The position numbers were made by a program, and so were the translations under genes. Positions 23,954 to 51,700 of a stretch of 64,000 nt of DNA are shown here, piece by piece (within the stretch, counting starts at the first letter, position 1; the number at the start of each line of letters is the position of its first letter). The notes below the pieces were generated by a model that was not told where the DNA came from, did no database searches, and saw only the letters and a program-made list of their open reading frames with translations. The stretch is from the NCBI GenBank assembly GCA_041649655.1, contig JBAZMO010000001.1:173-64172 (forward strand). The letters are read 5' to 3'. Origin of the DNA: Patescibacteria group bacterium. GTDB lineage: Bacteria > Patescibacteriota > Patescibacteriia > 2-01-FULL-39-33.

Positions 23954-26857
23954 ATGACATACAAGGAGTTCTTGAATGATGGAGGAGAGAAGAAGTGGCA
24001 GGATCAATGGCTGAACACAAAAATTGATCGAGCCGATGACTTCAGTTCCAAGCCCAAGAAATATGTGCTGGATATGTTCCCGTATCCGTCCGGCGCGGGC
24101 TTGCATGTCGGCCATCCGGAGGGTTATGCGGCGACTGATATTTATTCTCGTTATTGGCGGCTGAAGGGATTCAATGTCCTGCATCCGATGGGCTGGGACG
24201 CTTTCGGTTTGCCGGCGGAAAATTACGCCATCAAAACCGGCACCCAGCCGCAATTGACCACTGATAATAATGTCGCCACTTTTAAACGCCAAATTCAGTC
24301 GCTTGGCTTTTCTTATGATTGGGATCGGGAAATCAATACCACTGATCCGAAATATTATAAATGGACGCAATGGATTTTTTTGCAATTGTTCAAAAAAGGC
24401 CTGGCTTATGAGGCGACCGTGCCGATTAATTTTTGTCCGTCATGTTTGACTGGTTTGGCTAATGAAGAAGTCAAAGACGGCAAATGCGATCGCTGCGGCA
24501 CGTCGGTCGAGAAGAAGGATTTGCGCCAATGGATGTTGAAGATTACCGCTTATGCCGACAGGTTGTTGGAAGGGGTTGATAAGCTGGATTGGCCGGAGTC
24601 GATCAAGGCCCTGCAGCGGAATTGGATCGGCCGATCGGAGGGAGCAACGGTGAAATTTCCAATTTCCAATTTCCAATTTCCAATTGAGGTTTATACTACT
24701 CGCCCCGACACTCTTTTTGGCGCGACCTATATGGTTTTGTCCCCTGAACATAATCTTTTGGATGAATTGAAACCTAGAATTACTAATTGGGAAGAGGTTC
24801 AGGATTATATCGCTAAAGCCAAGAATAAATCCGATCTGGAACGGACAGAACTTAATAAGGATAAGACCGGCGTTGAGCTGAAGGGCATTAAGGCGATTAA
24901 TCCGGTCAACGGCCAGGAGATCCCGATCTGGATTTCCGATTATGTGCTGGCGTCTTACGGCACCGGCGCGATCATGGCGGTGCCAGCTCATGATGAGCGT
25001 GATTTTGAATTCGCGAAGAAGTTCGGTTTGCCGATCATCGAGGTGATTATTCCGGAAAGGATTGATAAAAGGAATCCGCCCGTAGCCGGCAAAGAAAAGG
25101 TTGAGAGAAAAAATGTCCAAGTCATTGTTCGCAATCCTCGGACGGGAAAAATTCTTTGCCTTCATTCCCATAAATACGGCTGGGTCACTTTTCCAATGGG
25201 CGGCGTCGGGACTGATGAAGATCTGTTGGCTGCCGCTAAGCGCGAGGTGATAGAAGAAACCGGTTATCGGAATTTAATTAATGGCGAAGTGCTCGGCGGG
25301 CAAGTTCGCGCTGAATATTTCGCTAATCATAAGGATGTTAATCGAGTTTCTTTCACTAACTTAGTTCGATTTGATTTGGCTGATGAAGAACAGATCGGAA
25401 TTTCTGAGGAGGAAAAAATAGCCGAGAATGAAATCCTTTGGAAAAATCCGGAAGAATTAACGTTGGATTTCATGGTTCATGCGGAAATGGATGTTTGGCT
25501 GGAACGGATTAAAAAAGGCGATATCGCTTATACGGACGTCGATAATGGTGTCATGATCAATTCGGAATTTTTGAACGGCCTTGTGCCGGCTGAAGCAATC
25601 GGCAAGATGATCGACTGGCTGGAAGAAAAAGGTGTCGGCCATAAAGCGATCAATTACAAATTGCGCGATTGGGTTTTTTCTCGCCAAAGATATTGGGGCG
25701 AACCGATCCCGCTGGTGCACTGCGAGAAGTGCGGTCCGCCAGCTGGCGGATGTGCCATTCCGCTAAATGAAAAGGATTTGCCATTAACACTGCCCCAAGT
25801 GGAAAAATACGAGCCGACCGGCACCGGCGAATCGCCGCTCGCGACAATCGATGAGTGGGTCAATACGATTTGCCCGAAATGCGGCGGTCCGGCTAAGCGC
25901 GAGACCAACACAATGCCGCAATGGGCAGGCAGTTCTTGGTATTGGCTCAGGTATATTGATCCGCATAATGATGAGGCCTTTGCCGATCAGGATAAATTGA
26001 AATACTGGCTGCCGGTCGATTTGTATTTGGGCGGAGCTGAGCATGCGGTTTTGCATTTGCTTTATGCTCGTTTTTGGAATATGGTTTTGTTTGATCTGGG
26101 CGTTGTGCCGCAAGAAGAGCCGTTTGCTAAGTTGATTAATCAGGGTTTGATTCTGGGCGAAGACGGCGAGAAGATGTCGAAGTCGCGCGGCAATGTGGTC
26201 AATCCCGATGAAATCGTCAAGGACTTCGGCGCCGACACTTTCCGTTTATATGAGATGTTTATGGGGCCATTGGAAGCGATGAAGCCCTGGAGCACCAAGA
26301 ATATTCTGGGCGTCCATCGGTTTTTGAATAGGGTTTGGGAGTTAGTTCCCCTCCTTTCCAGGGAGGGGCTAGGGGAGGTTTCGGAAGGGAATGACAAGGC
26401 AGAATTAGAAATTTTATTTAATAAGACCATTAAAAAAGTCGGCGAGGATATTGAGGCGATGAGTTATAATACGGCTATTTCAGCGCTGATGGTTCTGGTC
26501 AATAAATTCCAGTCGGCTGGTGGTATTAATCAAGAGCAATTAGAAAAATTTTTAATCATCCTGTCGCCGTTCGCGCCGCATTTGGCAGAAGAATTGTGGG
26601 GAAAGTTAGGCCAGGTGGAAAGTATTTTTAAAGAAAAGTGGCCGGAGTATGATGCAAGCAAAGTCATTGACACGGAAATTGAAATGCCGGTGCAGATCAA
26701 TGGCAAAGTACGGGCTAAATTGAAATTGCCGGCCAATATTAGTGAAACTGAGGCGAAAGCAGCTGCTCTTAGTGATGAGAATGTCAAAAAATATCTGGTT
26801 GGCGAACCAAAGAAGATTATTTTCATTAAAGGCAAGTTGATCAGTATCGTGGTTTAG
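23954..26857 (+). CDS. leuS: leucyl-tRNA synthetase carrying an internal Nudix hydrolase domain
   Basis: [20 protein letters not shown] motif, CP1 editing domain, KMSKSRGN, C-terminal KGKLISIVV. About 130 extra aa between the post-editing [19 protein letters not shown] block and [12 protein letters not shown] contain a full Nudix fold. Confidence 0.95.
24654..24684 (+). repeat. (AATTTCC)n heptamer tandem repeat inside leuS, encoding FPISNFQFP
   Basis: AAATTTCCAATTTCCAATTTCCAATTTCCAA, identical to the ileS copy. Confidence 0.8.
25115..25525 (+). other. Nudix hydrolase domain embedded in LeuRS (Nudix box at about 25198..25266)
   Basis: [51 protein letters not shown] is a perfect GX5EX7REUXEEXGU Nudix box, with the preceding beta-strands typical of the fold. 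E. coli LeuRS has only about 45 aa in the corresponding segment. Confidence 0.75.
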
Positions 26858-26877: not shown

Positions 26878-27840
26878 ATGAAGAATATCAATGAGCAGAC
26901 AGAGCGGATCAGGGTTAGTCGTTATGAATTAGGCGGCGGAGAAATGCTGGCTTTATCTGAAAGCAATCCGCAAGAATTTTTATTAAAATATGGCGTTGAG
27001 CCGGCTTTAGAAATGTTGGAGCAAGGTCGTTATGATTATGATACGATAGTGACTAAATCTCAGCGGACGGAAGAAGAGGATAAAATTTTTATTGAAAAAT
27101 GGAAATCGGTCATCGGTTATGATCCTGACGGCAATCCTGGCAATTTGCCCTGGGTAGGACAAATACGAGATAGATACCGGCAAATATTATCGCCGGGTTT
27201 TTGTCAGTTTATTGATAAAGATAATTTTTCTGAATTCGGCGGAGAAGTCCGGTTCTATCTCTCCATTAAACAAGATTATTTATTGGATTTTTTGGAGCAG
27301 TTAGCGGGGGCGTTTGAGGAGCTGCCGGATTTATTCGCTTTCAAGATAAATATCAGCAATCAGGAGAGAAATGAAAATGCTGTTTTGTATTTGACTGAGG
27401 CCGCTACTCGTTCTGAAATAGATAAGTTGCTGCAAGTTCTTAGCGGTTTGCGTGTTCAGATCCATGATTCACAAGAGGTCTTTAATGGCTTTGACTTTCA
27501 GACGCCATTCAGCCAGCCGATTGTGGAAGAGTCAAACCGAGCCATTATCGGCCAACTGGCTTTTAATCCTTTTGCCAGCGCTAAGGGCAAAGTTAAATTA
27601 AGTTATGACGGCAGAGAAATCGGTCGGGCGCGAACTGTTAATCAGCTGTTTTCCAAGTTGGTCGAGCTAGTCAGATATTGTCGTCCCACCGATAGTTCCC
27701 CGGAGGAAACCGCTCAAATGATAGCGGCCGAAGCCCAAGTAACTTGCAGCTTTGAAGACGGCAGTGAGGAGAAAATTTTAAGTTTAGTCCAATACTGCCA
27801 GCTTTGTTTGCAAAAACTTTCTGATATCTGCAAATCTTAA
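26878..27840 (+). CDS. hypothetical protein
   Basis: 320-aa ORF; no recognisable motif. Confidence 0.5.
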   Translation: MKNINEQTERIRVSRYELGGGEMLALSESNPQEFLLKYGVEPALEMLEQGRYDYDTIVTKSQRTEEEDKIFIEKWKSVIGYDPDGNPGNLPWVGQIRDRYRQILSPGFCQFIDKDNFSEFGGEVRFYLSIKQDYLLDFLEQLAGAFEELPDLFAFKINISNQERNENAVLYLTEAATRSEIDKLLQVLSGLRVQIHDSQEVFNGFDFQTPFSQPIVEESNRAIIGQLAFNPFASAKGKVKLSYDGREIGRARTVNQLFSKLVELVRYCRPTDSSPEETAQMIAAEAQVTCSFEDGSEEKILSLVQYCQLCLQKLSDICKS

Positions 27841-27885: not shown

Positions 27886-29523
27886 TTAATGAAAGATCAA
27901 TTCGATCACATCGTCTTTTTTGAGGCGGCTTTGAGTGAAATTGGCGATTAGAGTGCCGTTAATAATGACGCTGACTTTTTCGGCCATATAACCGCAGTTA
28001 TCCAGCCAGTCGGCAATCGATGTTTCACCGGCAATGATTAGGCGTTTGCCTTGGCAGGGAACCAGAGTAATCGAACTGGCTACTAACAATTGTTTGACTA
28101 ATTCTTTCAATTCATTGATCGCGCGGACTCCGGCCTCTCGAATGAATTCCTTTTTGATCACTAAGTCGTAGATGTTGCTAATTAACTTAGCAAGTTCTCG
28201 GAGTAGCGGATCAGGCGTTTTATCGGGGTGGACGAGTTTTTGCCAAATGTGGAAACCGCGTTGAAGCTCTTTAGTCGGCGGGTCGGCTTGGCCGCACAAG
28301 ATATGGCAGAGCCATTCGCGGCAGTAACTGTCGTATTGGTTGATTTTGAAGATATCGATCTCATTTTTTTCAAAAATCGTCTGCAGGCGGGCCAGCGGAT
28401 TTTGGCCGTCGCCCTCAGGCATCTTGACTTTCGGTTGAGGCGTGGCTTTTTCCATTGGCGTTTGCTGTTGGATCGCCGGCTCCTTGAGTGTCGCCGGTTC
28501 AGTGTCCGCCGAAGCCGATCGAAAGTATTCCCAATCCAGACCATCGAACAATTTGGGATTAACTTGGCATAATTCGGCGATCCCGGCCGTTACCGACGGC
28601 CGCAAGCCCGGGGATTGCTTGACCGCTTCAGCCAGGATATTGCCAAAAGTTGATTTGATTGGGTCTGACAGCCGATCCGGTTTCTTGAAGATCTTGATGA
28701 CTTTTTCCGCCGCTTTTTTTCCGGCTCGGGCTTCCGGCGGCAGATTATTGTTGAATAGCAACCGTATGATTGTGAATAGTTGGCCTAGGGCTTCAGTCAT
28801 CTTCCCGGTTTGGCTGGCTGTTTGAAGTGAGGCAGCGACTGCGAATCCATTGGCGGTCAAACTGTTCAAGTTGGAAGCGATGATCTCTTGGGCAAAAATA
28901 TGTCCGGGATATTCCGGCTTGGTTTCAGTTATGGATTTGGCGCCGGATTTTTTGCTTTTCGAGCCATCGCTTGGCCCGGTTAAGAGTAGTCGGCCCTGGC
29001 TCGTTTCCGGCAGGGACAACCGGGCTTGGCCGGTCGTTTGATCGTGCGCAATCAAGCCGGTCGGCTCGCCGGTCCAGAACGATCTGACTTTCTTAATGAC
29101 CGAAACCGGCAATTCCTCGTCGACTCGTTTGGCTAAATGAGGGTTAACTTCGAACAGGATGGAAATGATCGTTTCCTTGTCTTCCGGATGAAGATGAAGA
29201 TGGATCCGGTAGAGCATCGATTGGACGGCGCGGATCATTATTTCTCGGCCGTCCTCCGAGCCGAAGCAATTATTGATTCGCCGCAGCGTTTCGTGCTGCG
29301 CGGTTCGATCCTGCGTCATTAGCCAGGTGAGAAGGCCGTAAAGATAGGCGCAATGAATGTCATCTTTGGTTATCGCCCAGCATCTTGCTGCCGTCGAATT
29401 GCGGACATTGATGAAAACCAACTGCCAAAATTGATGGACAGCTGCTTTGATCAAGCGCTGATCATTGAAACGTTCATTATCCGGTGGCAGGACGCCTAAG
29501 CCAGCCAGTTGTTTCTTAGACAT
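27886..29523 (-). CDS. hypothetical protein with a beta-grasp-like C-terminus
   Basis: Start assigned to ATG at 29523 with a strong RBS GGAAGGAGGACGACTT. Promoter on the minus strand: TTGACA (29629..29624), 17 nt, TACAAT (29606..29601). Confidence 0.55.
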   Translation of the reverse strand: MSKKQLAGLGVLPPDNERFNDQRLIKAAVHQFWQLVFINVRNSTAARCWAITKDDIHCAYLYGLLTWLMTQDRTAQHETLRRINNCFGSEDGREIMIRAVQSMLYRIHLHLHPEDKETIISILFEVNPHLAKRVDEELPVSVIKKVRSFWTGEPTGLIAHDQTTGQARLSLPETSQGRLLLTGPSDGSKSKKSGAKSITETKPEYPGHIFAQEIIASNLNSLTANGFAVAASLQTASQTGKMTEALGQLFTIIRLLFNNNLPPEARAGKKAAEKVIKIFKKPDRLSDPIKSTFGNILAEAVKQSPGLRPSVTAGIAELCQVNPKLFDGLDWEYFRSASADTEPATLKEPAIQQQTPMEKATPQPKVKMPEGDGQNPLARLQTIFEKNEIDIFKINQYDSYCREWLCHILCGQADPPTKELQRGFHIWQKLVHPDKTPDPLLRELAKLISNIYDLVIKKEFIREAGVRAINELKELVKQLLVASSITLVPCQGKRLIIAGETSIADWLDNCGYMAEKVSVIINGTLIANFTQSRLKKDDVIELIFH

Positions 29524-29651
29524 AAGTCGTCCTCCTTCCAGTCCGGTGTTGGGCTTTTTTGCTTTTATTCCTAATTTCATTGTCAATGAGCTGATAGTTT
29601 ATTGTAGGCCGCTTATTAATTATTGTCAAGTGTTTTTAAGGTTTTTTAGAA

Positions 29652-29684
29652 AACAAAAAATACCCATTGCTTTGCAGCAAGGGC
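29652..29684 (-). terminator. rho-independent terminator of the GC-rich three-gene operon
   Basis: Minus-strand hairpin CCCTTGCTGCAAAGCAATGGG followed by TTTTTTGTTTT. Confidence 0.55.
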
Positions 29685-29706
29685 GTGATGGTAAAAGTGC
29701 GGGTTC

Positions 29707-29904
29707 TTAGTATTCCCAGCCCCGTCCGATTAGGCCGCGCTGGGCATACCAGGCCTTCAGGGGCAGGTAGGGGAAGCGTCGCTCAAACTCGGCTCGGGAC
29801 AACCCCTCGACCAATCCTTGCCGCTTAACGCCTTCGTGGCGACGACGCAGGTGGTCGCGGGATCGATTGAGCCGGCGGGTTTCAGCTCGTCGGAGCTTAC
29901 TCAT
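29707..29904 (-). CDS. small basic protein (65 aa), third gene of a coupled operon
   Basis: MSKLRRAETRRLNRSRDHLRRRHEGVKRQGL...; its ATG overlaps the upstream stop as ATGA; GC about 60%. Confidence 0.45.
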   Translation of the reverse strand: MSKLRRAETRRLNRSRDHLRRRHEGVKRQGLVEGLSRAEFERRFPYLPLKAWYAQRGLIGRGWEY

Positions 29905-30062
29905 GAGTCGCCTTTCTGCCAAGCCCGCTTGGCTTGTTTGCGGTCATAGCCGCGTTTGCCTCTTGGCGAAGAGTGGACTTTTTCCGTCTGCCGCGGGAAA
30001 GCGCGACGGACTTTCTTGTCCAACTCGCGCAAGTTTATTGTACCGATATGGATGGTGCTCAT
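29901..30062 (-). CDS. small basic protein (53 aa), second gene of a coupled operon
   Basis: MSTIHIGTINLRELDKKVRRAFPRQTEKVHSSPRGKRGYDRKQAKRAWQKGDS; RBS GGAGAGAA; ATGA start/stop overlap with both neighbours. Confidence 0.45.
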   Translation of the reverse strand: MSTIHIGTINLRELDKKVRRAFPRQTEKVHSSPRGKRGYDRKQAKRAWQKGDS

Positions 30063-30349
30063 GTCGTTCTCTCCTTTTGCTCGAGATCCTGTTTGATCCC
30101 GAGCAGTTGCGGACACTGCTTGACCCAGAAGTCCTGCACTTGCCGTTCGGTCCGCTTGGCGGTCCATTCGGCTTTCAGCTCCGGACTCGGGATAAGCGCG
30201 GCCTTCAGTTCGGCCGGGGCGGAAGCGATCAGTTGGCCGCCGCAGGGCTTATGCACCCTGGCGACCTTGTCGTCGGCCGTCCGTACTAGCCACCGCGCGC
30301 CGTTGTTGCCGACTGTGCCGCAAAACTCGCATGTGTGTTTCTCGCTCAT
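30059..30349 (-). CDS. small zinc-ribbon-like protein (96 aa), first gene of a coupled operon
   Basis: MSEKHTCEFCG...HKPCGG cysteine pairs. Confidence 0.5.
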   Translation of the reverse strand: MSEKHTCEFCGTVGNNGARWLVRTADDKVARVHKPCGGQLIASAPAELKAALIPSPELKAEWTAKRTERQVQDFWVKQCPQLLGIKQDLEQKERTT

Positions 30350-30398
30350 GATTCTCTTCTCCTTGTGGTTGGGGTTGCAGTTTGAATGTCCGCTTCAA

Positions 30399-30417
30399 TG
30401 AACAAGTAATTTGTTCA
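30399..30417. promoter_or_regulatory. palindromic operator-like site upstream of the GC-rich operon
   Basis: TGAACAA-gtaat-TTGTTCA perfect 7-5-7 inverted repeat, about 50 nt upstream of the first gene. Confidence 0.35.
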
Positions 30418-31419
30418 CTCAAGTGGACTGCCGATTTTTTCATTTTTAGGGAAATCGGCGGAAACCTTTTTGACAGTGGAGCGGGATTTAAGCTGGCTTT
30501 TTTGCCAACCGGCCGAGCTAGTTCAGGATCGTTCCCGATACCGCCAGGCCTCTAATATCCCCGCTCCTGGGCTCGTCCAAGCCCGCCTCTTTTTCGAGGT
30601 ATAAGGCGATTTTTTCGCCCTCAGTCGAGATGTCCGACCGCGTGTTGCCGCTGTCACGGCTCACAACCGACTTTCTTGCAGGCGTTCTCGCCAGACAAGG
30701 GACTAGGTATAGTCGCAGTGGGAACCAACGCCTCTTCAGCGTTGCTTCCCGGGCGTGCTAGCACCCGTTCAGCCGTCCTCTAGCAAGGATGGTTGTCTCT
30801 CATGCAAGTTGCCCAGATTTCCGCTCGGGTCTCGCATAAGATTAGACGCGCTCCATCTGTGCGTTCCCGCAGAGATGAAGTGTTGGCAGCCAAGCCAAAC
30901 GTGCCCGGATGCCTGCGCGCATCTGCACCGGAATGTTTTCCAATCGTTTGAAAAATAATCCGGCGCAGACGCGCATCATTAGTAATCCATTATAAGGTGC
31001 CAGTCGAGATATATTACTTTTAACTTTGACCTGTTATCAATTACTTTTTTTTGGCACGACAAGTGTTGTTGCGAGTTAACACTATTAACGTCAATTAATC
31101 TTTCCGACAGCCGGGAAAAGTGGATTTTTTTCACCCCAACCGCTAAGGGCAGGGCAGAGTCCGCGAGGGACTGATCCGCTGTTTTCCAGTTAAACCGGGT
31201 TTTAGCCGGTTTTTTTGGCTAAATCGCCGTTAGCGGGCGATCGGCCAAATTCAGCTTTCAACTCTGGGTTTGTACTTGTCGGAAAGTTTTGACATTGGTT
31301 TTACCAGGTTGATAAATCAGTATATCACACGGAAATTATTTTGTCAATAGTCATTATAATTAATTATTATTTTTGTTATTATTTTAGCTAAATTTAAACA
31401 AAATAAATCATAATAATTC

Positions 31420-31437
31420 TGTCAATCATAATTGACA
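31420..31437. promoter_or_regulatory. inverted repeat TGTCAAT-cata-ATTGACA
   Basis: Perfect 7-4-7 palindrome in an AT-rich intergenic region. Confidence 0.3.
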
Positions 31438-31454
31438 ATTTGTTATTTTCCGAC

Positions 31455-31476
31455 CATGATTCATGATTCATGATTC
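31455..31476 (+). repeat. (CATGATT)3 heptamer tandem repeat
   Basis: CATGATTCATGATTCATGATTC; related TGAATCATGA motifs recur at 38874..38903. Confidence 0.7.
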
Positions 31477-31524
31477 TAAATTCATAATTCTAGCCCGCCT
31501 GTGGATAACTTTTGTTTATGCCTC

Positions 31525-31553
31525 TTGACAAAATTTATTGGGTATGCTATACT
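31525..31553 (+). promoter_or_regulatory. near-consensus sigma70 promoter
   Basis: TTGACA - 17 nt - TATACT with TGn-like upstream GC (GGTATGCTATACT). Confidence 0.6.
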
Positions 31554-31618
31554 GTTATATTGAGTCAAAAGCCGCATTGGGCGGCTGGCGATCAATGGAC
31601 ATTCAAAGGGAGAACGAA

Positions 31619-31816
31619 ATGTCGAAAAAAGCAAAATACGTGGTTGCAGTTAAAGATATTTCCACGGGGAAGATTCTTCCTGGCAAAGTTCTGGGGAGTT
31701 TTCGAGCCGAGGAATTTGCTCGACGCGATTTTTCAAAACTCGCTCAACGCGAATGCGGTTGGGCTCGCACCTATCATTGCGGTATTTTTTTTGAGGGTAA
31801 AATTGTTAGTTTCTAG
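31619..31816 (+). CDS. small hypothetical protein (66 aa)
   Basis: RBS AAAGGGAGA 6 nt upstream of the ATG; MSKKAKYVVAVKDISTGKILPGKVLGSFRAEEFARRDFSKLAQRECGWARTYHCGIFFEGKIVSF. Confidence 0.45.
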   Translation: MSKKAKYVVAVKDISTGKILPGKVLGSFRAEEFARRDFSKLAQRECGWARTYHCGIFFEGKIVSF

Positions 31817-32164
31817 TAAACCTCAACCGGTTTCTGCCGACGGCAAGGCGTCCTGAGGCAAATAGAAGCCACAACCTCAGAAAGGAGGCGGCTATGGGCA
31901 GCGGTTGACTCCAAACCCACCCTTCGCCATATTCCGGTTCTAACCTGGATATGGCGCGTGTCGGGCTCGGAGTAATCGCCGGTTCCATAGTTGTCAGCAC
32001 CGCTGCGACAGAAAGGAGAAGTATGGACGGAGTAGGATGAACTAGGTGAAAGACCTCTCATTATTAAAAAAAACGGAAAAGAGGTCGGGTAGGCCGCCAT
32101 CACCGATGGGCAGAATAAGCCAGTCCGGCGAGCGGCGAAACAAAAAAGAACATTGTTGATTCCT

Positions 32165-32208
32165 GGGGCGTTATCCGGCAGTTGCGGAGACGCCCCCTTT
32201 TTTTAAAA
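32165..32208 (+). terminator. rho-independent terminator closing the 31.5-32.2 kb transcription unit
   Basis: GGGGCG...CGCCCC stem followed by TTTTTTT. Confidence 0.5.
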
Positions 32209-32250
32209 ACCAATTTGAGTTATAATAGTAGGGACATTAACTATCATCCT

Positions 32251-33012
32251 ATGTTAATCAATGAATTGAAAAAAATCGGCTTGTCCGACAAAGAAGCCAA
32301 AGTTTATTTGGCGGCTTTGGAATTGGGCCAGGCCTCGGTCCATGACATTGCCGGCAAGGCGGGCATCAACCGTCCGACCGCTTATACGATTCTGGATTCG
32401 TTGATCAAGAAGGGTTTATGCAGCACTTATGCCGGCAAGGATAAGAAGATCCGCTACATCGCCGAGTCGCCGGAAATGATCATCAGCGTTTTGGAATTGC
32501 AGAAGCAGGAGATCGAGGCCAAGCAGAAGATGATCGATGAACTGATGCCGCAACTGCGCGCCATTTATAATCGCCAGGAGCACAAGCCGGTGGTCAGATT
32601 TTTCGAAGGCAAGGAGGGCTTGCGGGCCATGACCCAGGAGCAGATGCCGGCCAAGCCGCAATTAATCCGGTCGTTTTTTTCATTAGACGATTTGAGGCGG
32701 GTTTATTCCAAGGAAGAGGTAGACCAGGCCTATCAGAATCGGGTGAATAATAAGACCAAAGTCAAGGCCATGTTCACTTTGAAAGAAGGCGAGGATCGCT
32801 CTCGGCCCAGTCCGTTGGACGAACGCCAGCGTTTGCCGGCTGATCGTTTTCCCATCAATTGCGATGTCGCTTTTTTCGACAATAAAGTCCGCATTGCCTC
32901 GCTTAAAGACCGTTTGAACGGCGTAATCATCGAAGACAAGAATATTTACGAGACGATGGTTTCCTTGTTCGAATTGGCTTGGCTGGGCGCGCAGAGTTTG
33001 AAGAAGAAATAA
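32251..33012 (+). CDS. TrmB-like winged-helix transcriptional regulator
   Basis: N-terminal HTH LSDKEAKVYLAALELGQASVHDIAGKAGINRPTAYTILDSLIKKGL. ATG at 32251. -10 TATAAT at 32219. Confidence 0.7.
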   Translation: MLINELKKIGLSDKEAKVYLAALELGQASVHDIAGKAGINRPTAYTILDSLIKKGLCSTYAGKDKKIRYIAESPEMIISVLELQKQEIEAKQKMIDELMPQLRAIYNRQEHKPVVRFFEGKEGLRAMTQEQMPAKPQLIRSFFSLDDLRRVYSKEEVDQAYQNRVNNKTKVKAMFTLKEGEDRSRPSPLDERQRLPADRFPINCDVAFFDNKVRIASLKDRLNGVIIEDKNIYETMVSLFELAWLGAQSLKKK

Positions 33013-42500: not shown

Positions 42501-42710
42501 GTTACCTCGACTAATCCGTCTTCTTATGGCTATTTGCTTTGCAAAGATATTGACGGAGCGGTTTTGTGCGCCAGTGACAAAAAATGCAAGGCCCATGTTG
42601 CTACTTCCACAAATTCTGTTTTGAATGGCAGTTGGATTATTACCAAGGATAAATCCATCACTGATTTTACTACCGGAGAAACCGGCTGCTGCTTTGGCAA
42701 GTGTTTTTAA
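39504..42710 (+). CDS. giant secreted/surface protein 1 (1068 aa) with conserved N-terminal helical-hairpin membrane module
   Basis: Signal peptide then two TM helices around the invariant MYGGFIWMTAAGEPDKVTKAK. Gly-rich linker. Long Ser/Thr/Asn/Gly-rich beta-type extracellular region. C-terminal Cys cluster CCFGKCF. Confidence 0.7.
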   Translation: MIKRQIVSNQRSFFKNARAATIGSLAFFIALFLMPALAWAAGDIPTLSGVVEGTGLPMVNLTVFLLAILRIFFGLLGVLAIALLMYGGFIWMTAAGEPDKVTKAKQIIYNTIIGLIVIFSAFAITSFLMAWLNGLGGGGDGGGTTRIPGGNGDWGRSAIGAGPIQSVYPAPNAVNVPINTRIAVTFKVNIDPSSICELVAGETYCNGGLMKNVTICAISSTSSDCLPDPEFNANVYADTKVYQATSSDQRTFIFSTNNYLGLDDNQVRIFKVHLGADIEAAATNESVFANLRYPDYAWAFKTNGVLDFSPPEVARMEIYPNPDNTPDTYNVGAQSTVGSASITASITPRLETPPTIQGRPFTGTPLVDISLTEDLDNDPIIPDDYLKLGTSGFSVTSTNSVKKISFQISPAGEYIEFDISPDAASILGVTFSRTGVCANKERCLLVDDNKRVTLTGSGLTIASTGNFSEARGSKWSFTVSPAVNGDEVILANGTNKINFIFADTSLPAKITKRSVASDGRTIVNTDYFTVKSAATSTAGYLKGLNDALIAHAGNFVTSTVATNKIIVTPKAAGANSLSLTTNSSALAIDGNLSGEARVTARTPLPPGSKGDAYNNSVFRVSFTEAISPINIEQHVIIKINGDIVTASTTLTNQYRTLEFLGTKPCGVNSCGKQMYCWLDPNSADVSLPASIEIVAAGLKTCVGTNDDWCVKFGGTCQVGVDGGRCQLTNGLHYPQADVSADGVTDMANNSFNGNFNKSENNKGVMVGNAEGRSGTGAGRSGQPAYNANSITTPIHFDGLVTSFANDGDANGDNFSWSFFVSTQIDRAAPLIAKILPTGDSSHGIGLDQTFRDPVTLVFNGLMRLATLQPGWGYGEREADPRWHTRYLILKTITAGANPIGYWVSALNLDEGDFSTEAGRGDGLADYTEARINHSAYDQAVNYGPLAGNGIESITQNCLLPGNGPIDAGATGDNKCVYNSDGSGNTSGCVTDLDIDSNRRVTSTNPSSYGYLLCKDIDGAVLCASDKKCKAHVATSTNSVLNGSWIITKDKSITDFTTGETGCCFGKCF

Positions 42711-42744
42711 GTTATACAATACAAAAAGAAATTTTAATTCTTCA

Positions 42745-45700
42745 ATGTTAGTTCGAACAAAAAAAACACTTTTAGTCATTCTTGTAATTCTGGCGGCAGC
42801 GACTTTAGCGTTGCCGGCGGCGGTTTTGGCTGCGGGCGAAGTCCCGTCGATCGGCTTATTCGGCAGTATTTTCGGCACAGCGACTTTGGCGCAGATCATT
42901 ATTCGGATCATTCAGCTGTTTATGGCGCTTCTCGGCGTCATTGTTGTGGTATTTTTGATGTATGGCGGCTTTATTTGGATGACGGCCTCAGGCGATCCGG
43001 ACAAAGTCACCAAGGCCAAGCGTATCATCTTGCAGGCGATTATCGGCTTGGTTATAATTTTTTCGGCTTTTGCCATCTCCGCTTTCATTTTTGATCGTTT
43101 CGGCCCGCCGGACGGCGGTTCTCCGACTGAGCCCTGCGAAACTGTCGGAGAAACCGACAATTGTTCGGTCGGCGGCTGCACCGGTTTGCGGACTTGTCTG
43201 GAAGGCAATATCTGGGGTCCATGCCAATTCGATCCTAATTGCGATCCGATCAATCCTCCTTATAACCTAATTCCGCCGGTCATCACTTATATTGACCCGG
43301 CTTGGGACGTTAATGGCGATACTGATCCGAGCAATATCACGGAGGCCTCTACGGCTGATGACATTTCCAATGGTGCTCCGGGCAATGCCATCAGTATTTT
43401 CGGCCGTTATTTCGGCCAAGTCAGGGGCAAGGTTTATTTTGTCAGAAATAGTGACAATATTAGAACCGAGGCCGACATTGCCGATTGTTTCGGCGCTTGG
43501 ACTAGCAATCAGATCATTGTCGTGGTGCCGGACGGTTTGGATCAAATGGATATCAGCTCGGAAACGGCCATCGTCAATGCCAGTCCGCTCAGGAATTACA
43601 ATGTAATTGTCGAGAAAAATTCGACCGGGGCGACGTCTTTGGTCTCCAATGACTGGGGGTTTCAAGTCAATAAAATCGAACGGCCGGGGATTTGTTCTAT
43701 GGTTCCCAAGAGTGGCGCCTATCCGGCGACGACGACGATTGTCGGTTGGAGATTTCCCAGCGCTTCGCCGCAGAATGTTTTGTGGTCGCTGTCGCCTTAT
43801 CATGCAACATCAAGCGCTAGTGCTTGGACCGTCAGTTCGACGATCGATACCGTGCCGCAGGATTTAAGCGGCCGCGCTCTGGTAAATATTTTTAATGGCG
43901 TTGTCAAGAGTAATTCATATTTGTTCATGGTTTCTCGAGGCCGATTGGATGATCCTTGCGGCTATGATAATCGTTCATGCGACGAGGATATTAATACTTG
44001 CGGCCAAGATGAGGGCGTAGTTTTGGCCTGCCAATTCTGTTCTGATGATCCGGCTAATGATGATCATTATCAAGCCGGCTGTGATTTGTCGAAGAATTGC
44101 ACTTGCCAAATCAACTCGAAAGACGCCTGCGTTTATAATTCTGATCAGTTGCAAAATGATAAGCAGGCCTGCTTTATTGGCGGTTGCGCCGGCTTTAAAT
44201 ATTGCACTGATAGAGGTGTTTGGAGTAGCACTTGTGTGCCATCAGCAGTCGATTGCGTGCCATATCTGGGCAATCGTTCCGGCATCGCCTCATTTTCTTG
44301 GGCTTTTAACGCTTTGAAACGGCCGATAGCCGGCATGAGCTGTAAGTCGGATATTTGGAGCGATGATACTTGCGATCTTAACGGCTGTTTTGACGCCAAT
44401 CTCGGCTGTGATACTTCTCAAACGACTGAAGAGTGGGTTGAGATTTATAATCCGACCGATAGTGCGATTGATATCAGTGATTTAAGAATCAGCTATATTG
44501 ATGATTATTTCGGCACTGAAGAAAAAACCTTTTTTTCTTTTTCTAATCCGACTGGCAAATTTATCGGCGGCAAGAGTTACATGGCCCTAAGGAACACCGG
44601 AGCCCGTTTGCCGAATATTTCTGGAAAAATAATTTTAAATAATAATTTCAGCCAAGTTGATATTGTTGAGTATGGCAATAATGATTTATCGGCGGCTTTT
44701 TCGCCCGCTTCTTTTGGTCGGAAAATAGACGGTTTGGATACCGGCAACGCGTCTGATTTTGTTTATTTTCCTAATTCGAGCGGCGATTTTCCTAACAATA
44801 CGGCCAGTTCGACGATCGGTGATCATTTGGTTATAAATGAGGTTTCTTTGGCTCATGATGCCTGTACTTGCGTGCCGAAGTCGCAATTATGCGCCCCTGG
44901 CGAAGTTGATGCCCAGACCTGCGATCCGGTCGGGCAGTGCCGGCAGGCGAGGACCTGTTCGGCCGACGGCCATTGGGGCGCTTGCGTTCAAAGCGATCCC
45001 AATTGCATTCCTTATCCGCTTGTGCCGGCCTCGACTATCGCTTCTTACAGCTGGTCGTTCGGCGCGAATGCCGGGCTCTCTGGCGCCGGTCCGATGGTGG
45101 TTAAGTCGTGCGACGGTTCGGTCGATTGCAGCCGAAACAGTTTGCCCAGCCCTTCGCCCTGGGAAGAGTGGACGCCGGAAAATTCCAATGTGGAAAATCA
45201 AGCCAGTATCGATGCCTGTTTGAATGCCACGATTTTTGCGCGTTTTACACAAACGATGGATCAAGCGACTTTGAATACGGAGAATATTAAATTGTATAAA
45301 TATAATAATAGTAACGCAACTTGGGAAGATAATCGCTTAATTGATGATATTGAATCATTACCATTAAGTGACAGTGGTGTAGATTCTTTCAATTTAAAGC
45401 TTAATCAGAATTTAATTTCAAGTACCACTTATCGTGTTTATTTAAGCAAGTCGATTCGTGATGGATTGGGGCGCAATTTGATTGATACTCCTAATGGTCC
45501 GCGGCAGGAATTATGCGGCGGTGTCGGCGATGGCAATGGCGTCTGCTGGAGTTTTAAAACTCGCGCAGCCAGCGATCCTAATAAGATGTGCGAAGTCGGC
45601 TGCGTCAATTGCGGTCCGGACAAGTACTTCAATCGTTATTACGGCCAAAAGAAACAGCACGCCGCTTATCCGATCAGCATTGATAATTCTTGCATTGTGC

Positions 45701-48700
45701 TGGATGCTACGAATTATGAATGGGACTGGACGGTCGAGCAGCAAACCACTGGTAACAGTAATAATCGCGGTTGGGAAATCATGCGGACTATGGCGAGCGC
45801 CTATTCATGGCTGTTGGATCCAATCAGCCAGTTGGCTCTGACGGCAACTGATGGCATTTTACATCAGATAAGCGGCACAGTCATATCTGGCAAAGCGACG
45901 ACGACGGCGCAGTTGGAAACACGCTGGCGCACTAATTCCAATTATTCCGCTTGGTTCGAAGGCGATGATTTTGATTTTTTTGCAGTTAGGTCTAAGGAGG
46001 CCGCGACTCAAAATTCGGGAATCTGCCGGGCGCATAACAATTTTACCGATCCAGTGGTGATTGAAAGCCAATACTGCACCAAGAGTGATACTGAGGGTGA
46101 TGCTGACAGCGATAATTGGTCCAAGCAGGTCTTGCAAAGCCCGAGTCCCTGGAAGGGGCAAACTGATGCCTGCACTAATGGCGTTATCTTCGTGCTGTTT
46201 TCCCGTAATATGATGAATGGAAGTTTATTGAACGGCGGCCTAATTAAAAATTTTGAAATTTATAAGTGCGACAATGCCGCAGCCGCTACTTCTTCTGATT
46301 TCAGCAGTTATAATGATGATTGCGAACTTCAGCCGGCTTGGCAGGCTAAAGTTTTCAATTATACTCATCAAAATATCACCTTGCAGGAGTTAATGGCCGC
46401 TGCTGACAGCGTCCAAGGATCTACAACTCCGGAGGGAATCCGGATTTATCCTCCGAATAAATTAGCGTCCAACACTTGGTATAAAGTCCTTATTAGGGGC
46501 GGCGAGAACGGGGTGCGCGGAGGAAATTCTGATTCCAATGAGCAATCCGAGGGTGTTTTGCAAGTCCCCAATCCCAATGCCAGGATAATCAACGGTGCGG
46601 AAACTTGGTATTATTGGTATTTCAAGACAGGCGCCGGCGATTGCCCGATCGATCAGGTGGCGGTCTTGCCGCAAATCAAGTTTATGCCGGTAGTCGGAGA
46701 GTCCCAGGATTATTTAGCCGACCCGTATGCTGCCAATTGCAACCATCTTAATTCTAATAATTATGTTTGGCAGTGGGATTCTTTGATCAATCCCTTTGTC
46801 GACCGTTGTCCGAACGGCAATAATTCGGGCGATTATGTCGCTTCTATTCTTTCGACCACTTCAGACGAAACGATAGCGACTTCCAGAAGCGAGGGTAATA
46901 CTAAGATCACGGCCGCCGCCGAGCAGGGCGAGTGCGAAGCTAATAAATGGGGCGCCGGCGAATTGCAGGTCGGTTATGGCGGATTCAAGGTGTCTTCTTA
47001 TGACAACACCAATTGCTTGAACACTGATATTAATATCAATTTTTCTCAAGAGGCCAAAAGCGATACTCTTAAGAATAATATTGAGCTTTACCGATGCGGT
47101 AATTCTGATTGCCGTTTTGATGATTTACAGAACTTGCAGATTACTATAAGAAATCCGCAAGGCCTTTATGAAGATCCTATCAAACCAGATCCTTTTTATT
47201 CCAATTCGGTTTATCTGGTGCCGAATATCAATCTGACTCCGGGCGCAACTTATCGAGTGGTGGTTAAGGGAGGTGATACCGGCGTTAAGTCATTTGCTAA
47301 CTCCTCATTATTGGATTTGAATTATAATTCTGAGGCCAAAGCCGGTGGTGAAGTTTGCGATCCGGGGCTTTATCCTTGGCGGTCGGGCGATCCGTTTGTC
47401 GGATTATGCAGTAATGCCTGCAAGCTCATCGGCAACTTATGCGGCACGCCACTGGCGGAATGCCAGCCGGCTGATTTATTGTGCGATGACAACTGCCACA
47501 AAGTCGGCAATAGCAATACTTCGGCCAGTTGCGGTAATAATAAGATCGATCCCGGCGAGCAATGCGACGACGGCAATACCAGAGATGGCGATAGTTGCAG
47601 CTCGTTATGCTTGCTCGAAGGCAGCAACACCAGATACGGCTCGCTATGTGGCAACGGCAAGATAGAAAAAGGCGAGCAATGCGACGACGGCAATATCGTA
47701 GATAATGATGGCTGCAGTTCCGAATGTTTGCTGGGGGTAGAGGGCGTCACTACTAACATTTTATTTAATACCAGTTTTGAAGAAGACGACATACGTACTG
47801 GTGCGTTGAAAAATTGGTCTACATATTCACAAAAGCATTCTAAAGTGGAAGTTACATCAGTTGAGTATCAATCAGGAGCTCGAAGCGTTTTAATATTGCA
47901 GGAATCTAATCAAGTATTTCCCGGTACTTGTACGGAGGCGATTTGTAATGACTTGAGTCCAGCCCTCCCAACTAATATCGGTTGCACTTGGTTGAGTGCT
48001 ACCAATCAGTGTAGTTTTAATCAGCAGGATAGTGCGCATCTTGGCAACTCCAATCCCATTTATAATTTTGGCAACACTCTATATGCACCAAATAACCATG
48101 CGGTGGTGTGGGGTGCTCTTTCTTATAATGTATCTTCGCCCGGCTTTGTGGTAGGTCAGAAGTATACTGTTAAATTTTGGTACAAGGGAATAGTTGATAA
48201 GAATAGCACTACTAGTTTGGTTTTTGGTTATAACCCTGGCAATCTTAGTCAATGCAACTCGACTAGCACATTAAATTTGAAAGATGACCCAAGTAATCCT
48301 GGCAATGAAATTTGTAAAACTGGTAAATTTTGTTCTGACGATCCTAGTCATTGCTGTTTTCAGGCGCCTTACCAAACTAAATGTTATAGCGGCATATCTA
48401 AAACAGCGATTAATCCCGGTACTTATGATGATTGGCAGCCACATACGACCGAATTTATTTACACTTCGGAATTAGCCAGCTTGCGAGATAGTGCCGGCAG
48501 ATTATTAAATGTGATAGCCCTAGTTATTCCTAATGCGCCAACAACTGATAGTGGTACCAGGCTTTATATTGATGATTTTTCGGTCGAGCAAGTCGGTTCT
48601 GTCTCTGACGCGCCGATTTGCGGCAATGGCAAGATTGAAGCCGGTGAGCAATGCGATGATGGCGCTGATAATGCGGTTGATAGTTCGTCTCTTAATCGTT

Positions 48701-51700
48701 GCACCTCCAATTGTCTTTTAAGCGGCGCGAATGCTACGAGCACAGGCGGCACTTGCGGTGACCGCAAATTACAGAATGGCCAATTTGACAGTTACTCTTG
48801 GACTTTCAATCTTGATGACAATGTCAGAGTTTGCCAAGCTGTCAGAGCCGATCTCAATCCTTGCCCTAATGGTGTTTGGTCGGTCAGCGCTGATGCCAGT
48901 GTCAGCAGTTTTGATATCTTGTTTTATCGTGGGTTTGAAGGCAATAATAAACCTGCGTCTAATTGCATTTCTGACGCAGAGATGCGGCAATACGGCTTTT
49001 GGCGGCGGATGTTTAATGAATTAGCCAAGATAGTTAAAAGTTTCTTCGGTTTCCATTCGGCTTTGGCGGCCGATTGGTGGTGTACGATGAATAATTCTAA
49101 TGACAGTAAATTTTCAGCTGAAGATTTGCAAAAAATGAGCTTGGGTAATTTCAAGCGTGATATTTTGCTGGACGGGGTGTCGACTGAGATCATCGGTTAT
49201 ACTGATGATAATGACGGTTATAAAGTTAATTTTATCCGTAAAAATAACTATCAGCCGAACACCCAGTATAAGGCGGTGGTGAATTATGTCCGCAATGGCG
49301 TCAGCAATATCCGGACTTCCGATGTGACGACTTACTCCTCAAGCTGCCGAATGGACAGCGTTAAATTCGATGTCTGGCCGCGCGGCGCGGCTAAGAATTC
49401 GGATGCGTTTTTCTGCGCTTCTGATCCGGTTGCCGGCAAGTTGGACGAGTGCGGCCGTTTCAGCGATGATCCTTATGACGACGATATGTCGGCGGCTTGG
49501 ACCATGAATCAACTGGATAACGGCTATAACTTGAACAGCAATGGCGATGCTCAAACCGCTATTAATAATCCCAATTACAAGCCGGGCAATAATCATCTTT
49601 ATCGCGTCTGGCCGCTTGATCAAGACGGGCATGTTTTGCGCGGCATTAATTTTGAGCAGAATGTGGCCAATGTCGGCGCTCTGGTCAATCAGTCGGCTTT
49701 AGGCAGCACTGGTTATGCCGGCGATTTCTGGCTGACTTCGGGGCCAACCCAGGGCCGATCTCTTTTTAACGTCAAGATCAGTGATTTGAATGATGCCGGC
49801 GCCGGCAGCGTCAGCGGCAGTTTGCCGATTTATACTTTTTTCTGCAAGAATCCCTGGCCGTCCCCCAATGATTTCCCGTTTGTTGATAGTAACGCAAATT
49901 GTCCAACTGGCACTTGTATTAATACTAATTTCGCCGCTTACTATTGCCGCGATGCCGGACTGGACAGCACGACGGCTGATGATTTGCCGTCGATCGGCAG
50001 GATAAATTCCGGGGTGGCGGTCATCGGCTCTGAAGCTTGCCCAACCACTGATCCGTGCGACAATAAGATTAAGGAGTTCTTATTCAGCGGTTCGGCTGCC
50101 GGCATAGCGACCTCCAGCAATACCATCGGCTTGAGGATTTACAACAATAATAATCATTATTCGCCGACTTTGTGGTATCAATCGCGATTCAATCCCGCTT
50201 CCCAAAGCAATTTGTCGAAATTAAGCGTCGACGGCTATAGCGCCAGCCGAGAAGGCCGGACGACTTATATTAATGCGGCTGATTTTAAAGATGGCCAGGA
50301 CAAGGTTTATTCCGACATATTTATTTTGTCTTATGACCAGAACGCCGGCGAAGCGGTTAAGAATATTTATGACCAACTCTTAGCCAACTGGTTTTTCAAT
50401 GCCGGCTCCTTGTCAGTCGGCGGCTTGGAATATTATGAAGCCCTTGGTTTTTGCAGTGAAGGCAGCCAGGCCGATCAAGATAACAGATGCTTCAGCGATG
50501 TCGATTGCTTGAAACGCGGCGCCGGTTATTGTAAGTCGGAAAAAGCCAAGATCACCCGCGATACTCAGCGCTTGGCTGATGTCCAGGATATTTACAAGGA
50601 GTTGGCTGGTTATTATGGCCGCTTACGCTGTTCTAATGATTTCAATCGTGTTTGCCGGTCCAATGCCGACTGTTACGGCGGCGGAGCTTGCGGTAATTTC
50701 TATCCTAATTTGCGCGCCGGCACTTACCTGACCGGCAAAACCTTCAGTGTTTGGCCGAGCTGGCAGGATAACCTGGGCAAGGACTTGGGAACCGCTTTGC
50801 CAGTTGATCCGATTAATAAATTGTGGGCTTGGTATGGTAAGTCAGTTGATTGCTCTAATCCTTATAATCCCGTCACTTGTTGGGACCAGACCGGCAAAAA
50901 AATGGAGTCGAATCTTGATTGGAATTCTGCCGTCTATGCTTATTACGGCACTAAAGCCGGCACTTCGACTAAGATTTATATCAAGGGTGAAAAGGACTCG
51001 ACCGGTTCGATTTGGCATGAAGATTGGGTTTCGTTGGCGACTTGGGGTTATAACCCTTTCAGTGGTTATGTAGTTGGTGGTTTTCATTCAATAGTCAGCG
51101 ACAGTTGCGGCAATAATGTTTGTGATAATTCTGCCGGTGAGACCTGCTCTAGTTGTCCTTTGGATTGTGCTTGCTTAATTGGCAAATCTTGCCAAAAAAT
51201 TTCTAGTGTTTGGCAATGCGCGACATCGACATTACCGATTGCTGCATCCGCGACCTGCGGCAATGGGATTATAAATCATAGTATTAATTATATGACTGGA
51301 GCGAATATCGGAGAAGAGTGTGATTTTATTAATGGCGTGCCGAATTGTCCTAGTCCAAATGAGCTATTTGGGAATCCTAATATTATAAAACTTGTAACAT
51401 CTACTGTTCAAGGCGCTCTTTGCTGCACTGACCAATGCAAATTATCTGATTGGTATAAATCAGTTAATTCAAATCCCAGATGTGGCGACGGCTTAAGGAC
51501 TGACCAGGAAGAATGTGATTGTGGAACGGTTGGTTATACGCCAGCAAAATATAATCCCTTTGTCTGTAATAATCTAAATTATAATCCGATAACTACATAT
51601 TTAGAACCGCCAGCTAGGCCGGTTGATAAGCCATATTGCGACACTAATTGTTTTCTTCACATTAATACTGATTACAGGTTTTGCGGTGATGGTTTAAAGA

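Follow-up and report, generated by a model that had tools for sequence, protein, structure and literature searches.

The 64,000-nucleotide stretch analyzed here (the window) belongs to the chromosome of a bacterium of the Patescibacteria (candidate phyla radiation, CPR) whose genome has ~47% GC. Its minus strand carries a chain of three small open reading frames (ORFs), preceded by ~1 kb with no credible ORF; this predicted operon, its long structured leader RNA, and a two-hairpin element that recurs in relatives are the subject of this report. Pfam identifies among the neighboring genes those for a TrmB-family regulator (32182-33012), a protein kinase, UvrA, and a LeuRS into which a NUDIX domain is inserted; the other neighbors have no Pfam match. 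The three ORFs and the signals closest to them are as follows:

30349-30059, minus strand: ORF1, 96 amino acids (aa)
30062-29901, minus strand: ORF2, 53 aa; NCBI hypothetical protein WC517_00135, Patescibacteria group bacterium metagenome-assembled genome
29904-29707, minus strand: ORF3, 65 aa; NCBI hypothetical protein WC517_00130, from the same assembly
30364-30359, minus strand: Shine-Dalgarno sequence of ORF1, AAGGAG
before ORF2, minus strand: Shine-Dalgarno sequence of ORF2, AAGGAGAGAA
29684-29648, minus strand: putative intrinsic terminator, a 9-bp hairpin with one bulge, then AUUUUUUGUUUU (U-run)

An initial annotation had read this region as a minus-strand chain of 96, 53, and 65 aa joined by ATGA junctions, with its own ribosome-binding site and a terminator. 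The chain holds to the exact position, with ATGA stop/start overlaps joining ORF1 to ORF2 at 30059-30062 and ORF2 to ORF3 at 29901-29904. AAGGAG provides the ribosome-binding site, and the hairpin with its U-run is a plausible terminator, though a modest one (−12.4 kcal/mol, z = −1.4), which our consensus scan omitted because of the bulge. The annotation had left the reality of the frames to their preservation in relatives, and all three are intact (tblastn, 45–91% identity) in L003, which is collinear with the window over 2.7 kb (91% DNA identity overall), in L004, and in L002, a 249-kb contig of GTDB genome JBAZRV01. Relative to L003, substitutions at the first, second, and third codon positions number 3, 7, and 18 in ORF1, 3, 3, and 16 in ORF2, and 7, 7, and 16 in ORF3. 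This third-position excess points to protein-coding selection, and on such comparative evidence all three small ORFs are real genes. ORF1 has seven close homologues (P0001-P0007), a family that a profile search widens to 55 representative clusters at 50% identity, while ORF2 has 22 homologues and ORF3 has 14.

Judged by their sequences, the three products are members of no described family, in agreement with the earlier remark that none was recognized: no match to any of them was found in Pfam, NCBIfam, PHROG, or PADLOC. The Cys pairs previously noticed in ORF1 form a C7-x2-C10...H33-x2-C36 arrangement that is conserved across 46 family members, 0 of which matched Pfam. Its AlphaFold2 model (predicted local distance difference test, pLDDT, of 85) displays a CxxC...HxxC zinc-binding β-hairpin domain and two helices, for which Foldseek returned generic small zinc modules only from the PDB (ZZ, B-box, and eL24-like, E ≥ 0.17). 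ORF2 and ORF3, rightly described before as Arg/Lys-rich, each contain 28% Lys+Arg and have isoelectric points (pI) of 11.3 and 11.6, respectively. The homologue alignment of ORF2 reveals an invariant motif, G-K-x-G-Y-x-R, within HSSPKGKRGYDRK. ORF3 is modeled (pLDDT 76) as an Arg-rich helix (residues 2–32) followed by two short helices, with a conserved segment, EFExxFPxLP...WY, after the N-terminal helix, and this model has no fold match in the PDB. A nucleic-acid-binding role, one of the options offered by the initial annotation, fits the composition of these proteins.

The KGKGSY-like motif of ORF2 suggested a relation to ArfA (alternative ribosome-rescue factor A, PF03889). Indeed, FPRQTEK...KGKRGYDRK of ORF2 resembles FRQRVEK..KGKGSYMRK of ArfA, and both proteins are basic and ~50–70 aa long. 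Homology is nonetheless unsupported, with an hhalign probability of 1.5–1.6%, an empty profile search of PDB sequences at E ≤ 10, and no ArfA match in a Pfam scan of 23 members. Separately, a 53-aa protein with the ORF2 motif HSTKKGKRGYDR is encoded on a viral contig (L018 3394-3555, IMG/VR UViG_3300002966_000458) beside a DnaB-like helicase and a primase; the motif is therefore found outside the Patescibacteria locus too.

The reported jump in base composition is present, as the cassette has a GC content of 0.603 compared to 0.487±0.035 for the 33 long ORFs of the window (60.3% versus 48.7±3.5%). GC at third codon positions (GC3) is likewise atypical rather than uniform, with values of 0.75 for ORF1, 0.63 for ORF2, and 0.68 for ORF3 against 0.559±0.059 for the same 33 ORFs. 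From this contrast and the tight coupling, the initial annotation suggested a horizontally acquired module, toxin-antitoxin-like or phage-derived, with the GC contrast marking foreign origin. GC and GC3 values 2–3 standard deviations above those of window genes and the tight coupling of the small ORFs do favor such a module, as do the variable gene content of the locus among relatives, the relocated and inverted ORF2 homologue of L002, and the ORF2-like gene beside a viral helicase and primase. The genomic position of the locus argues otherwise. In L002, homologues of ORF1 and ORF3 are flanked by the TrmB and NUDIX-LeuRS genes known from the window, and the ORF2 homologue occupies that same interval on the opposite strand. 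The same locus is found in L002, L003, L006, and L015, the ORF2/ORF3 pair again abuts LeuRS in the distant L006 and in a 24-kb JGI contig, and P0075, a distant ORF1 relative, directly follows a TrmB gene in a group of small genes (L016). Locus and flanks are constant across diverged genomes, and the divergence is that of the neighbors: between the window and L002, DNA identity is 73.5% for ORF1 and 72.5% for TrmB. The cassette is thus as old as the genes around it. Furthermore, ORF1 homologues are GC-rich in every host (0.56–0.64 GC in all five host backgrounds of 0.43–0.50 GC), suggesting a maintained composition rather than un-ameliorated foreign DNA. We attribute the GC excess to GC-rich RNA helices together with Arg/Ala/Gly/Pro-rich coding of high GC3, a trait kept in every relative.

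Signs of mobility are equally scarce. Flanking direct repeats (att-like) amount to pairs of 12–14 nucleotides (nt) at chance level, the 64-kb window contains no tRNA gene, and no integrase occurs among the annotated neighbors examined, the whole window not having been scanned for one. Phage and plasmid collections gave no DNA match to the cassette, and IMG/VR holds no relatives of ORF1, ORF3, or the leader and a single distant ORF2-like gene, that of viral contig L018. The adjacent, overlapping small genes recall type II toxin-antitoxin pairs, but no toxin or antitoxin domain is detected (no PADLOC, Pfam, or NCBIfam match). Of the island-like properties examined, atypical composition is present, whereas a boundary of repeats, tRNA, or integrase and a patchy distribution or lower divergence are absent. 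The acquired-module reading, whether phage-derived or toxin-antitoxin-like, is largely refuted, and we regard it as very unlikely; as far as these genome comparisons reach, the operon is vertically inherited and lineage-specific within a small Patescibacteria clade and is not an acquired island.

Upstream of ORF1, the region contains the following features:

31420-31437, both strands: palindrome TGTCA-N8-TGACA, conserved in five aligned loci and also in L014 and L015
31382-31403, both strands: palindrome TTTTAGCTAAATTTAAACAAAA, 22 nt, AT-rich, conserved in five loci and also in L014 and L015; perfect in L002
31347-31319, minus strand: sigma-70-type promoter with extended −10, TTGACA-17-(TG)TATACT, 11/12 consensus positions
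31312-31090, minus strand: multi-stem 5′ domain; a long-range helix between 31289-31277 and 31109-31097 closes it
30974-30901, minus strand: hairpin C, a 16-bp lower stem plus an upper stem (30974-30917), then the conserved GCAGGCAUCCGGGCAC
30895-30480, minus strand: GC-rich, ORF-free structured segment, its sequence common to the window and L003 only
30478-30350, minus strand: two-hairpin element and linker, composed of GGUUUYY, hairpin 1, hairpin 2, ACAUU, an A-rich linker, and the Shine-Dalgarno sequence
30459-30430, minus strand: hairpin 1, 8 bp
30426-30390, minus strand: hairpin 2, ~15 bp with two bulges

The promoter at 31347-31319 is the only strong minus-strand promoter that our scan identified upstream of the ORFs, and the scan listed no minus-strand terminator-like site between it and them, from which we predict a single transcript starting near 31312. 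The promoter hexamers are invariant or nearly so in five loci, and the promoter is also present in L014 and L015. The same distribution is seen for the first ~50 predicted transcribed bases (AUCAACCUGGURAAACCAAUGUCAAAACUUUCCGACAAG), which are near-invariant in five loci and recur in L014 and L015; scans of sequence collections with the invariant 5′-leader motif returned the known contigs and one chance match inside an unrelated gene (L012). Both palindromes sit between the operon promoter and a divergent promoter (31525-31553, plus strand). They are likely operators, and the adjacent TrmB-like regulator is possibly the protein that binds them. The initial annotation was therefore right about a coupled operon and wrong about its start at 30420, since the unit reaches ~900 nt further upstream to include the promoter and a structured leader.

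This leader, predicted to be part of the transcript, is an ORF-free and highly structured region of ~960 nt between the promoter and ORF1. Its 5′ domain (fold z = −4.1) is closed by an inverted repeat, I5, of 13 nt with 92% complementarity. RNAalifold on seven loci recovers the closing helix and three inner stems, with compensatory changes in 10 of the 25 pairs, and the closing helix displays a G-C to A-U double change in L015. Hairpin C is kept in L002, L003, L004, and L015 through wobble-compatible changes and one G-C to A-U pair. The ORF-free stretch at 30470-30990 (GC 0.559) folds in the sense direction with a minimum free energy of −247 kcal/mol, compared to −181±7 kcal/mol for dinucleotide shuffles (z = −9.2; antisense z = −6.5); the segment 30480-30895 alone gives z = −6.9 and the ORF region z = −3.2.

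Compared with L003, the leader is better conserved at the sequence level than the ORFs that it precedes. Identity is 97.3% for the 5′ domain (31310-31090), 96.8% for hairpin C, and 97.8% for the GC-rich segment (30895-30480), versus 90.3% for ORF1, 85.1% for ORF2, 84.5% for ORF3, and 88.8% for TrmB. The GC-rich part differs in length by one 1-nt indel, which rules out a hidden reading frame. Of the 41 leader substitutions between window and L003, 29 are unpaired and 12 of the 12 paired ones retain their pair via wobble, a count with a bias, since these two sequences also supplied the structure (alifold). The GC-rich spacer has no nhmmer similarity to loci other than L003. Equivalent spacers elsewhere consist of different sequence with a GC content of 0.50–0.54 and are structured as well, with fold z-scores of −8.9 (L002), −4.5 (L015), −3.6 (L005), and −2.6 (L004) against +0.3 to −2.3 for coding controls.

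Could this GC-rich, ORF-free stretch consist of functionless decayed cassettes, with function confined to the three genes and the leader directly before them? Its sequence is lineage-specific, and in L002 and L004 the equivalent interval is occupied by additional genes or gene pieces, namely a gene of 143/147 aa and part of a type II secretion F-domain (T2SSF) gene. Nevertheless, the 97.8% identity to L003 exceeds the 84–93% of coding genes, the sense fold z-scores reach −7 to −9, and the substitutions avoid or preserve predicted pairs. An origin by decay of the 143/147/135-aa gene known from relatives was likewise considered; tblastn with their extra genes finds nothing in the stretch, and the segment, with its 1-nt indel, has no frame. 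Decay consequently strikes us as hardly credible. The T2SSF fragment itself (98 aa, L004 1039-1335) is inserted in the leader between the 5′ domain and hairpin C, indicating that the leader tolerates large insertions. In addition, short leader hairpins with A5-6 or GAAAAA loops occur at 30491-30621 (e.g., CCUC-GAAAAA-GAGG, 30599-30586), with similar ones in L002, L004, L005, and L015; these could be protein-binding sites or plain A-rich loops.

The two-hairpin element emerged when the 130 nt preceding ORF1 were aligned with sequence upstream of other small genes, those of L002, L004, and L005. A covariance model, R1, finds 16 copies of this ~75-nt element in eight loci, and copies outside the model-building set score 31–84 bits. 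All 16 lie on the sense strand upstream of small genes, 15 of them directly 5′ of the start codon, at a distance of 20–45 nt. The 64-kb window has one copy, whereas five or six occur in L014, no two of them before the same small gene. Across the 16 copies, 93.9% of cells are paired, as opposed to 31–49% when the partners are slid, and 12 of the 23 pairs have changed on both sides. The sequence of hairpin 1 varies within one genome with its pairing kept (GCCGAG/CUCGGC versus GAUGAUU/AAUCAUC in L004). Two positions are G-U in 8–10 of the 16 copies, which would be A-C mismatches on the other strand; the structure therefore belongs to the sense-strand RNA. The palindrome singled out by the initial annotation, TGAACAA-N5-TTGTTCA at 30399-30417, is unique in the window, was matched in 0/100 shuffles, and is part of hairpin 2. 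With its compensatory changes and fixed position and orientation, the element is a candidate cis-regulatory structured RNA in the generic sense. Rfam gave 0 matches at the gathering score in the whole 64-kb window and microRNA-type noise only at E ≤ 10 for 29000-32300, leaving both the two-hairpin element and the leader unmatched, and literature searches (peptide motif; RNA motifs in the candidate phyla radiation) yielded nothing relevant.

The same repetition could in principle be a property of DNA, with the element acting as a repeated promoter or operator, or as an attC-like recombination site that shuffles cassettes. It stands before each unit, always 20–45 nt from the start codon, hairpin 2 is a near-perfect, operator-like palindrome, and the order and content of units differ among relatives. 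A sequence-reading protein would not explain stems that differ within a genome while pairing persists, and the recurrent G-U positions would become A-C mismatches on the opposite strand. Moreover, the element contains no sigma-70 hexamer pair and no attC R′′/R′ consensus, is much shorter and more sequence-conserved than attC, and has no integrase in view. We thus judge a DNA-level function to be distinctly unlikely. In the arrays of relatives, the element also precedes extra small families, namely a Cys-rich protein of ~140 aa, one of ~147 aa, and one of 50 aa, each behind its own two-hairpin leader. A related cluster in a distant lineage (L016 4374-7753) again places an ORF1-family gene after a TrmB gene among small genes, including one for a stand-alone 87-aa protein resembling the RNA polymerase α C-terminal domain (Pfam E = 2.9e-7); the R1 leader was not found at this cluster.

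We propose that the locus is a vertically inherited small-protein operon under RNA-level control, a picture in which we have slightly more confidence than doubt; its descriptive parts are far more secure than the whole, and the identity of the trans-acting factor is far less so. In this model, the sigma-70-type promoter, beside the divergently placed TrmB-family gene and with two palindromes upstream, would drive the minus-strand operon, and the TrmB-like protein would control it via the palindromes. A single transcript of ~1.66 kb would comprise, in order, the 5′ multi-stem domain, the long hairpin, the GC-rich variable spacer, the two-hairpin element, ORF1-3, and the terminator, and translational coupling would yield a zinc-binding protein from ORF1 and two very basic small proteins. 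The two-hairpin element would serve as a modular cis-acting RNA signal, a copy of which relatives repeat before each small-gene unit, so as to couple all units to one trans-acting factor at the level of mRNA processing or stability, or of translation. The most likely candidate for this factor would be a product of the locus itself, either basic ORF2 or ORF3 or zinc-binding ORF1. Alternatively, the elements may be processing sites comparable to the intercistronic RNase III sites of phage T7.

Several observations weigh against this proposal. The sample comprises only ~8 independent, short metagenomic loci, and the covariation counts were drawn partly from a model-fitted alignment. Hairpin C retains only its 3′ half in L005, and a weaker promoter-like site at 31040-31011 (9/12) could start transcripts inside the leader. 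High identity of the GC-rich 416-nt segment to one close relative could reflect recent recombination rather than selection. Foldseek searches of the PDB revealed no recognizable RNA-binding fold in the ORF1 and ORF3 models. Lastly, masking of the Shine-Dalgarno sequence by the GGUUUYY flank, which would be the simplest translational mode of action, is not supported: the duplex energies do not surpass those of random 10-mers, their median percentile being 0.49, and just 2 of 15 copies reach ≤ 0.1.

A different arrangement of the same parts would make the GC-rich RNA the main product, a stable non-coding RNA with which ORF1-3, co-transcribed to load onto it, form a lineage-specific ribonucleoprotein. 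Conservation of the leader beyond the ORFs and its extreme fold z-scores would suit such a particle, as would two proteins with a pI > 11, a third predicted to bind zinc, several A5-6-loop hairpins, and the 30-residue Arg-rich helix with which ORF3 begins. Against it, the most structured segment is conserved in sequence in one close relative only, neither a terminator nor a processing site delimits a discrete RNA, and different gene sets follow the same 5′ domain in relatives. We consider the ribonucleoprotein unlikely. A broader and more speculative view sees an undescribed Patescibacteria RNA-protein system, with a TrmB-linked promoter, a long leader, and a riboregulator for each unit, whose own Arg-rich and zinc microproteins would recognize these RNAs and thereby either control the array or assemble into a ribonucleoprotein; this too is doubtful, if conceivable.

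Other features lie outside the proposed regulatory unit. The LeuRS gene (23954-26857, plus strand) encodes its NUDIX hydrolase domain at residues 385-516 (Pfam E = 2.6e-12), behind the editing domain, an insertion shared by the L002 orthologue and missing from LeuRS of the L006 lineage. Between ORF3 and LeuRS are two family-less genes that are absent from L002, encoding 566 aa (27886-29586, minus strand) and 320 aa (26878-27840, plus strand). The 566-aa gene has its own promoter at 29629-29601, and homologues of its product directly follow the small-gene cassette in L003 and L015. On the other side, an ORF-free region of ~50% GC at 31820-32180, between a small plus-strand gene (ending at 31816) and the TrmB gene, shares 82% identity with L003 and has fold z-scores of −2.2 (plus) and −3.9 (minus), with no Rfam match; it may be the 5′ untranslated region of TrmB. 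Farther away, a 3288-aa ORF (42625-52491, plus strand) is preceded by one of 1068 aa.

Patescibacteria are abundant, mostly uncultured bacteria of reduced genome size in which many genes lack an assigned function. What this locus adds is a candidate new RNA motif, with covariation that is unusually clear given the small number of sequences, together with a long structured leader whose evolution is slower than that of the genes behind it. Linked to a TrmB-type regulator, it also has three uncharacterized microprotein families, one of which comprises at least 55 sequence clusters. Should the proteins bind RNA, the locus would be a compact and testable case of RNA-based control of microprotein expression in a poorly studied group. 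It also calls for caution, in that a GC-rich patch in a mid-GC genome can signal a selected structured RNA rather than foreign DNA.

Among known systems, the mRNA leaders of ribosomal-protein operons (rpsF/S6:S18, L20) likewise place a structured RNA just upstream of small, basic, coupled genes, and by analogy an operon product binding its own leader would be a plausible logic here. Unlike those leaders, the present RNA has no Rfam match, its products are not ribosomal proteins (no Pfam/NCBIfam match), and the element is reused before several unrelated small genes in a few Patescibacteria only. The polycistronic mRNAs of phage T7 contain intercistronic RNase III processing hairpins, and a conserved hairpin repeated between cistrons, with 5–6 copies in L014, resembles that layout; in contrast, the context here is chromosomal and non-phage, and the element consists of two hairpins, with GGUUU and ACAUU as its conserved single-stranded parts. 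By inspection, the N-terminal Arg-rich helix of ORF3 and the GAAAAA-loop hairpins of the leader resemble parts of the lambda N/nut (boxB) antitermination system. No sequence homology links the two, however, and boxA was not identified; the loops measure 6 nt instead of 5, and loops rich in A are frequent in AT-rich RNA.

Integron arrays provide a further comparison. Their attC sites carry R′′ (RYYYAAC) and R′ (GTTRRRY) cores 3′ of each cassette, with an IntI integrase nearby. Like such arrays, the loci described here consist of small, mostly orphan genes in one orientation, each with a repeated hairpin-forming element, and vary in content. The element differs in being upstream of its gene, ~75 nt long, and sequence-conserved, in having no R′′/R′ cores by inspection, and in folding as sense RNA. 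Thus, the familiar aspect of this locus is its kind, an operon with a structured regulatory leader, and the unfamiliar ones are the modular use of a single leader ahead of many unrelated microprotein genes and the conservation of a leader beyond that of its genes.

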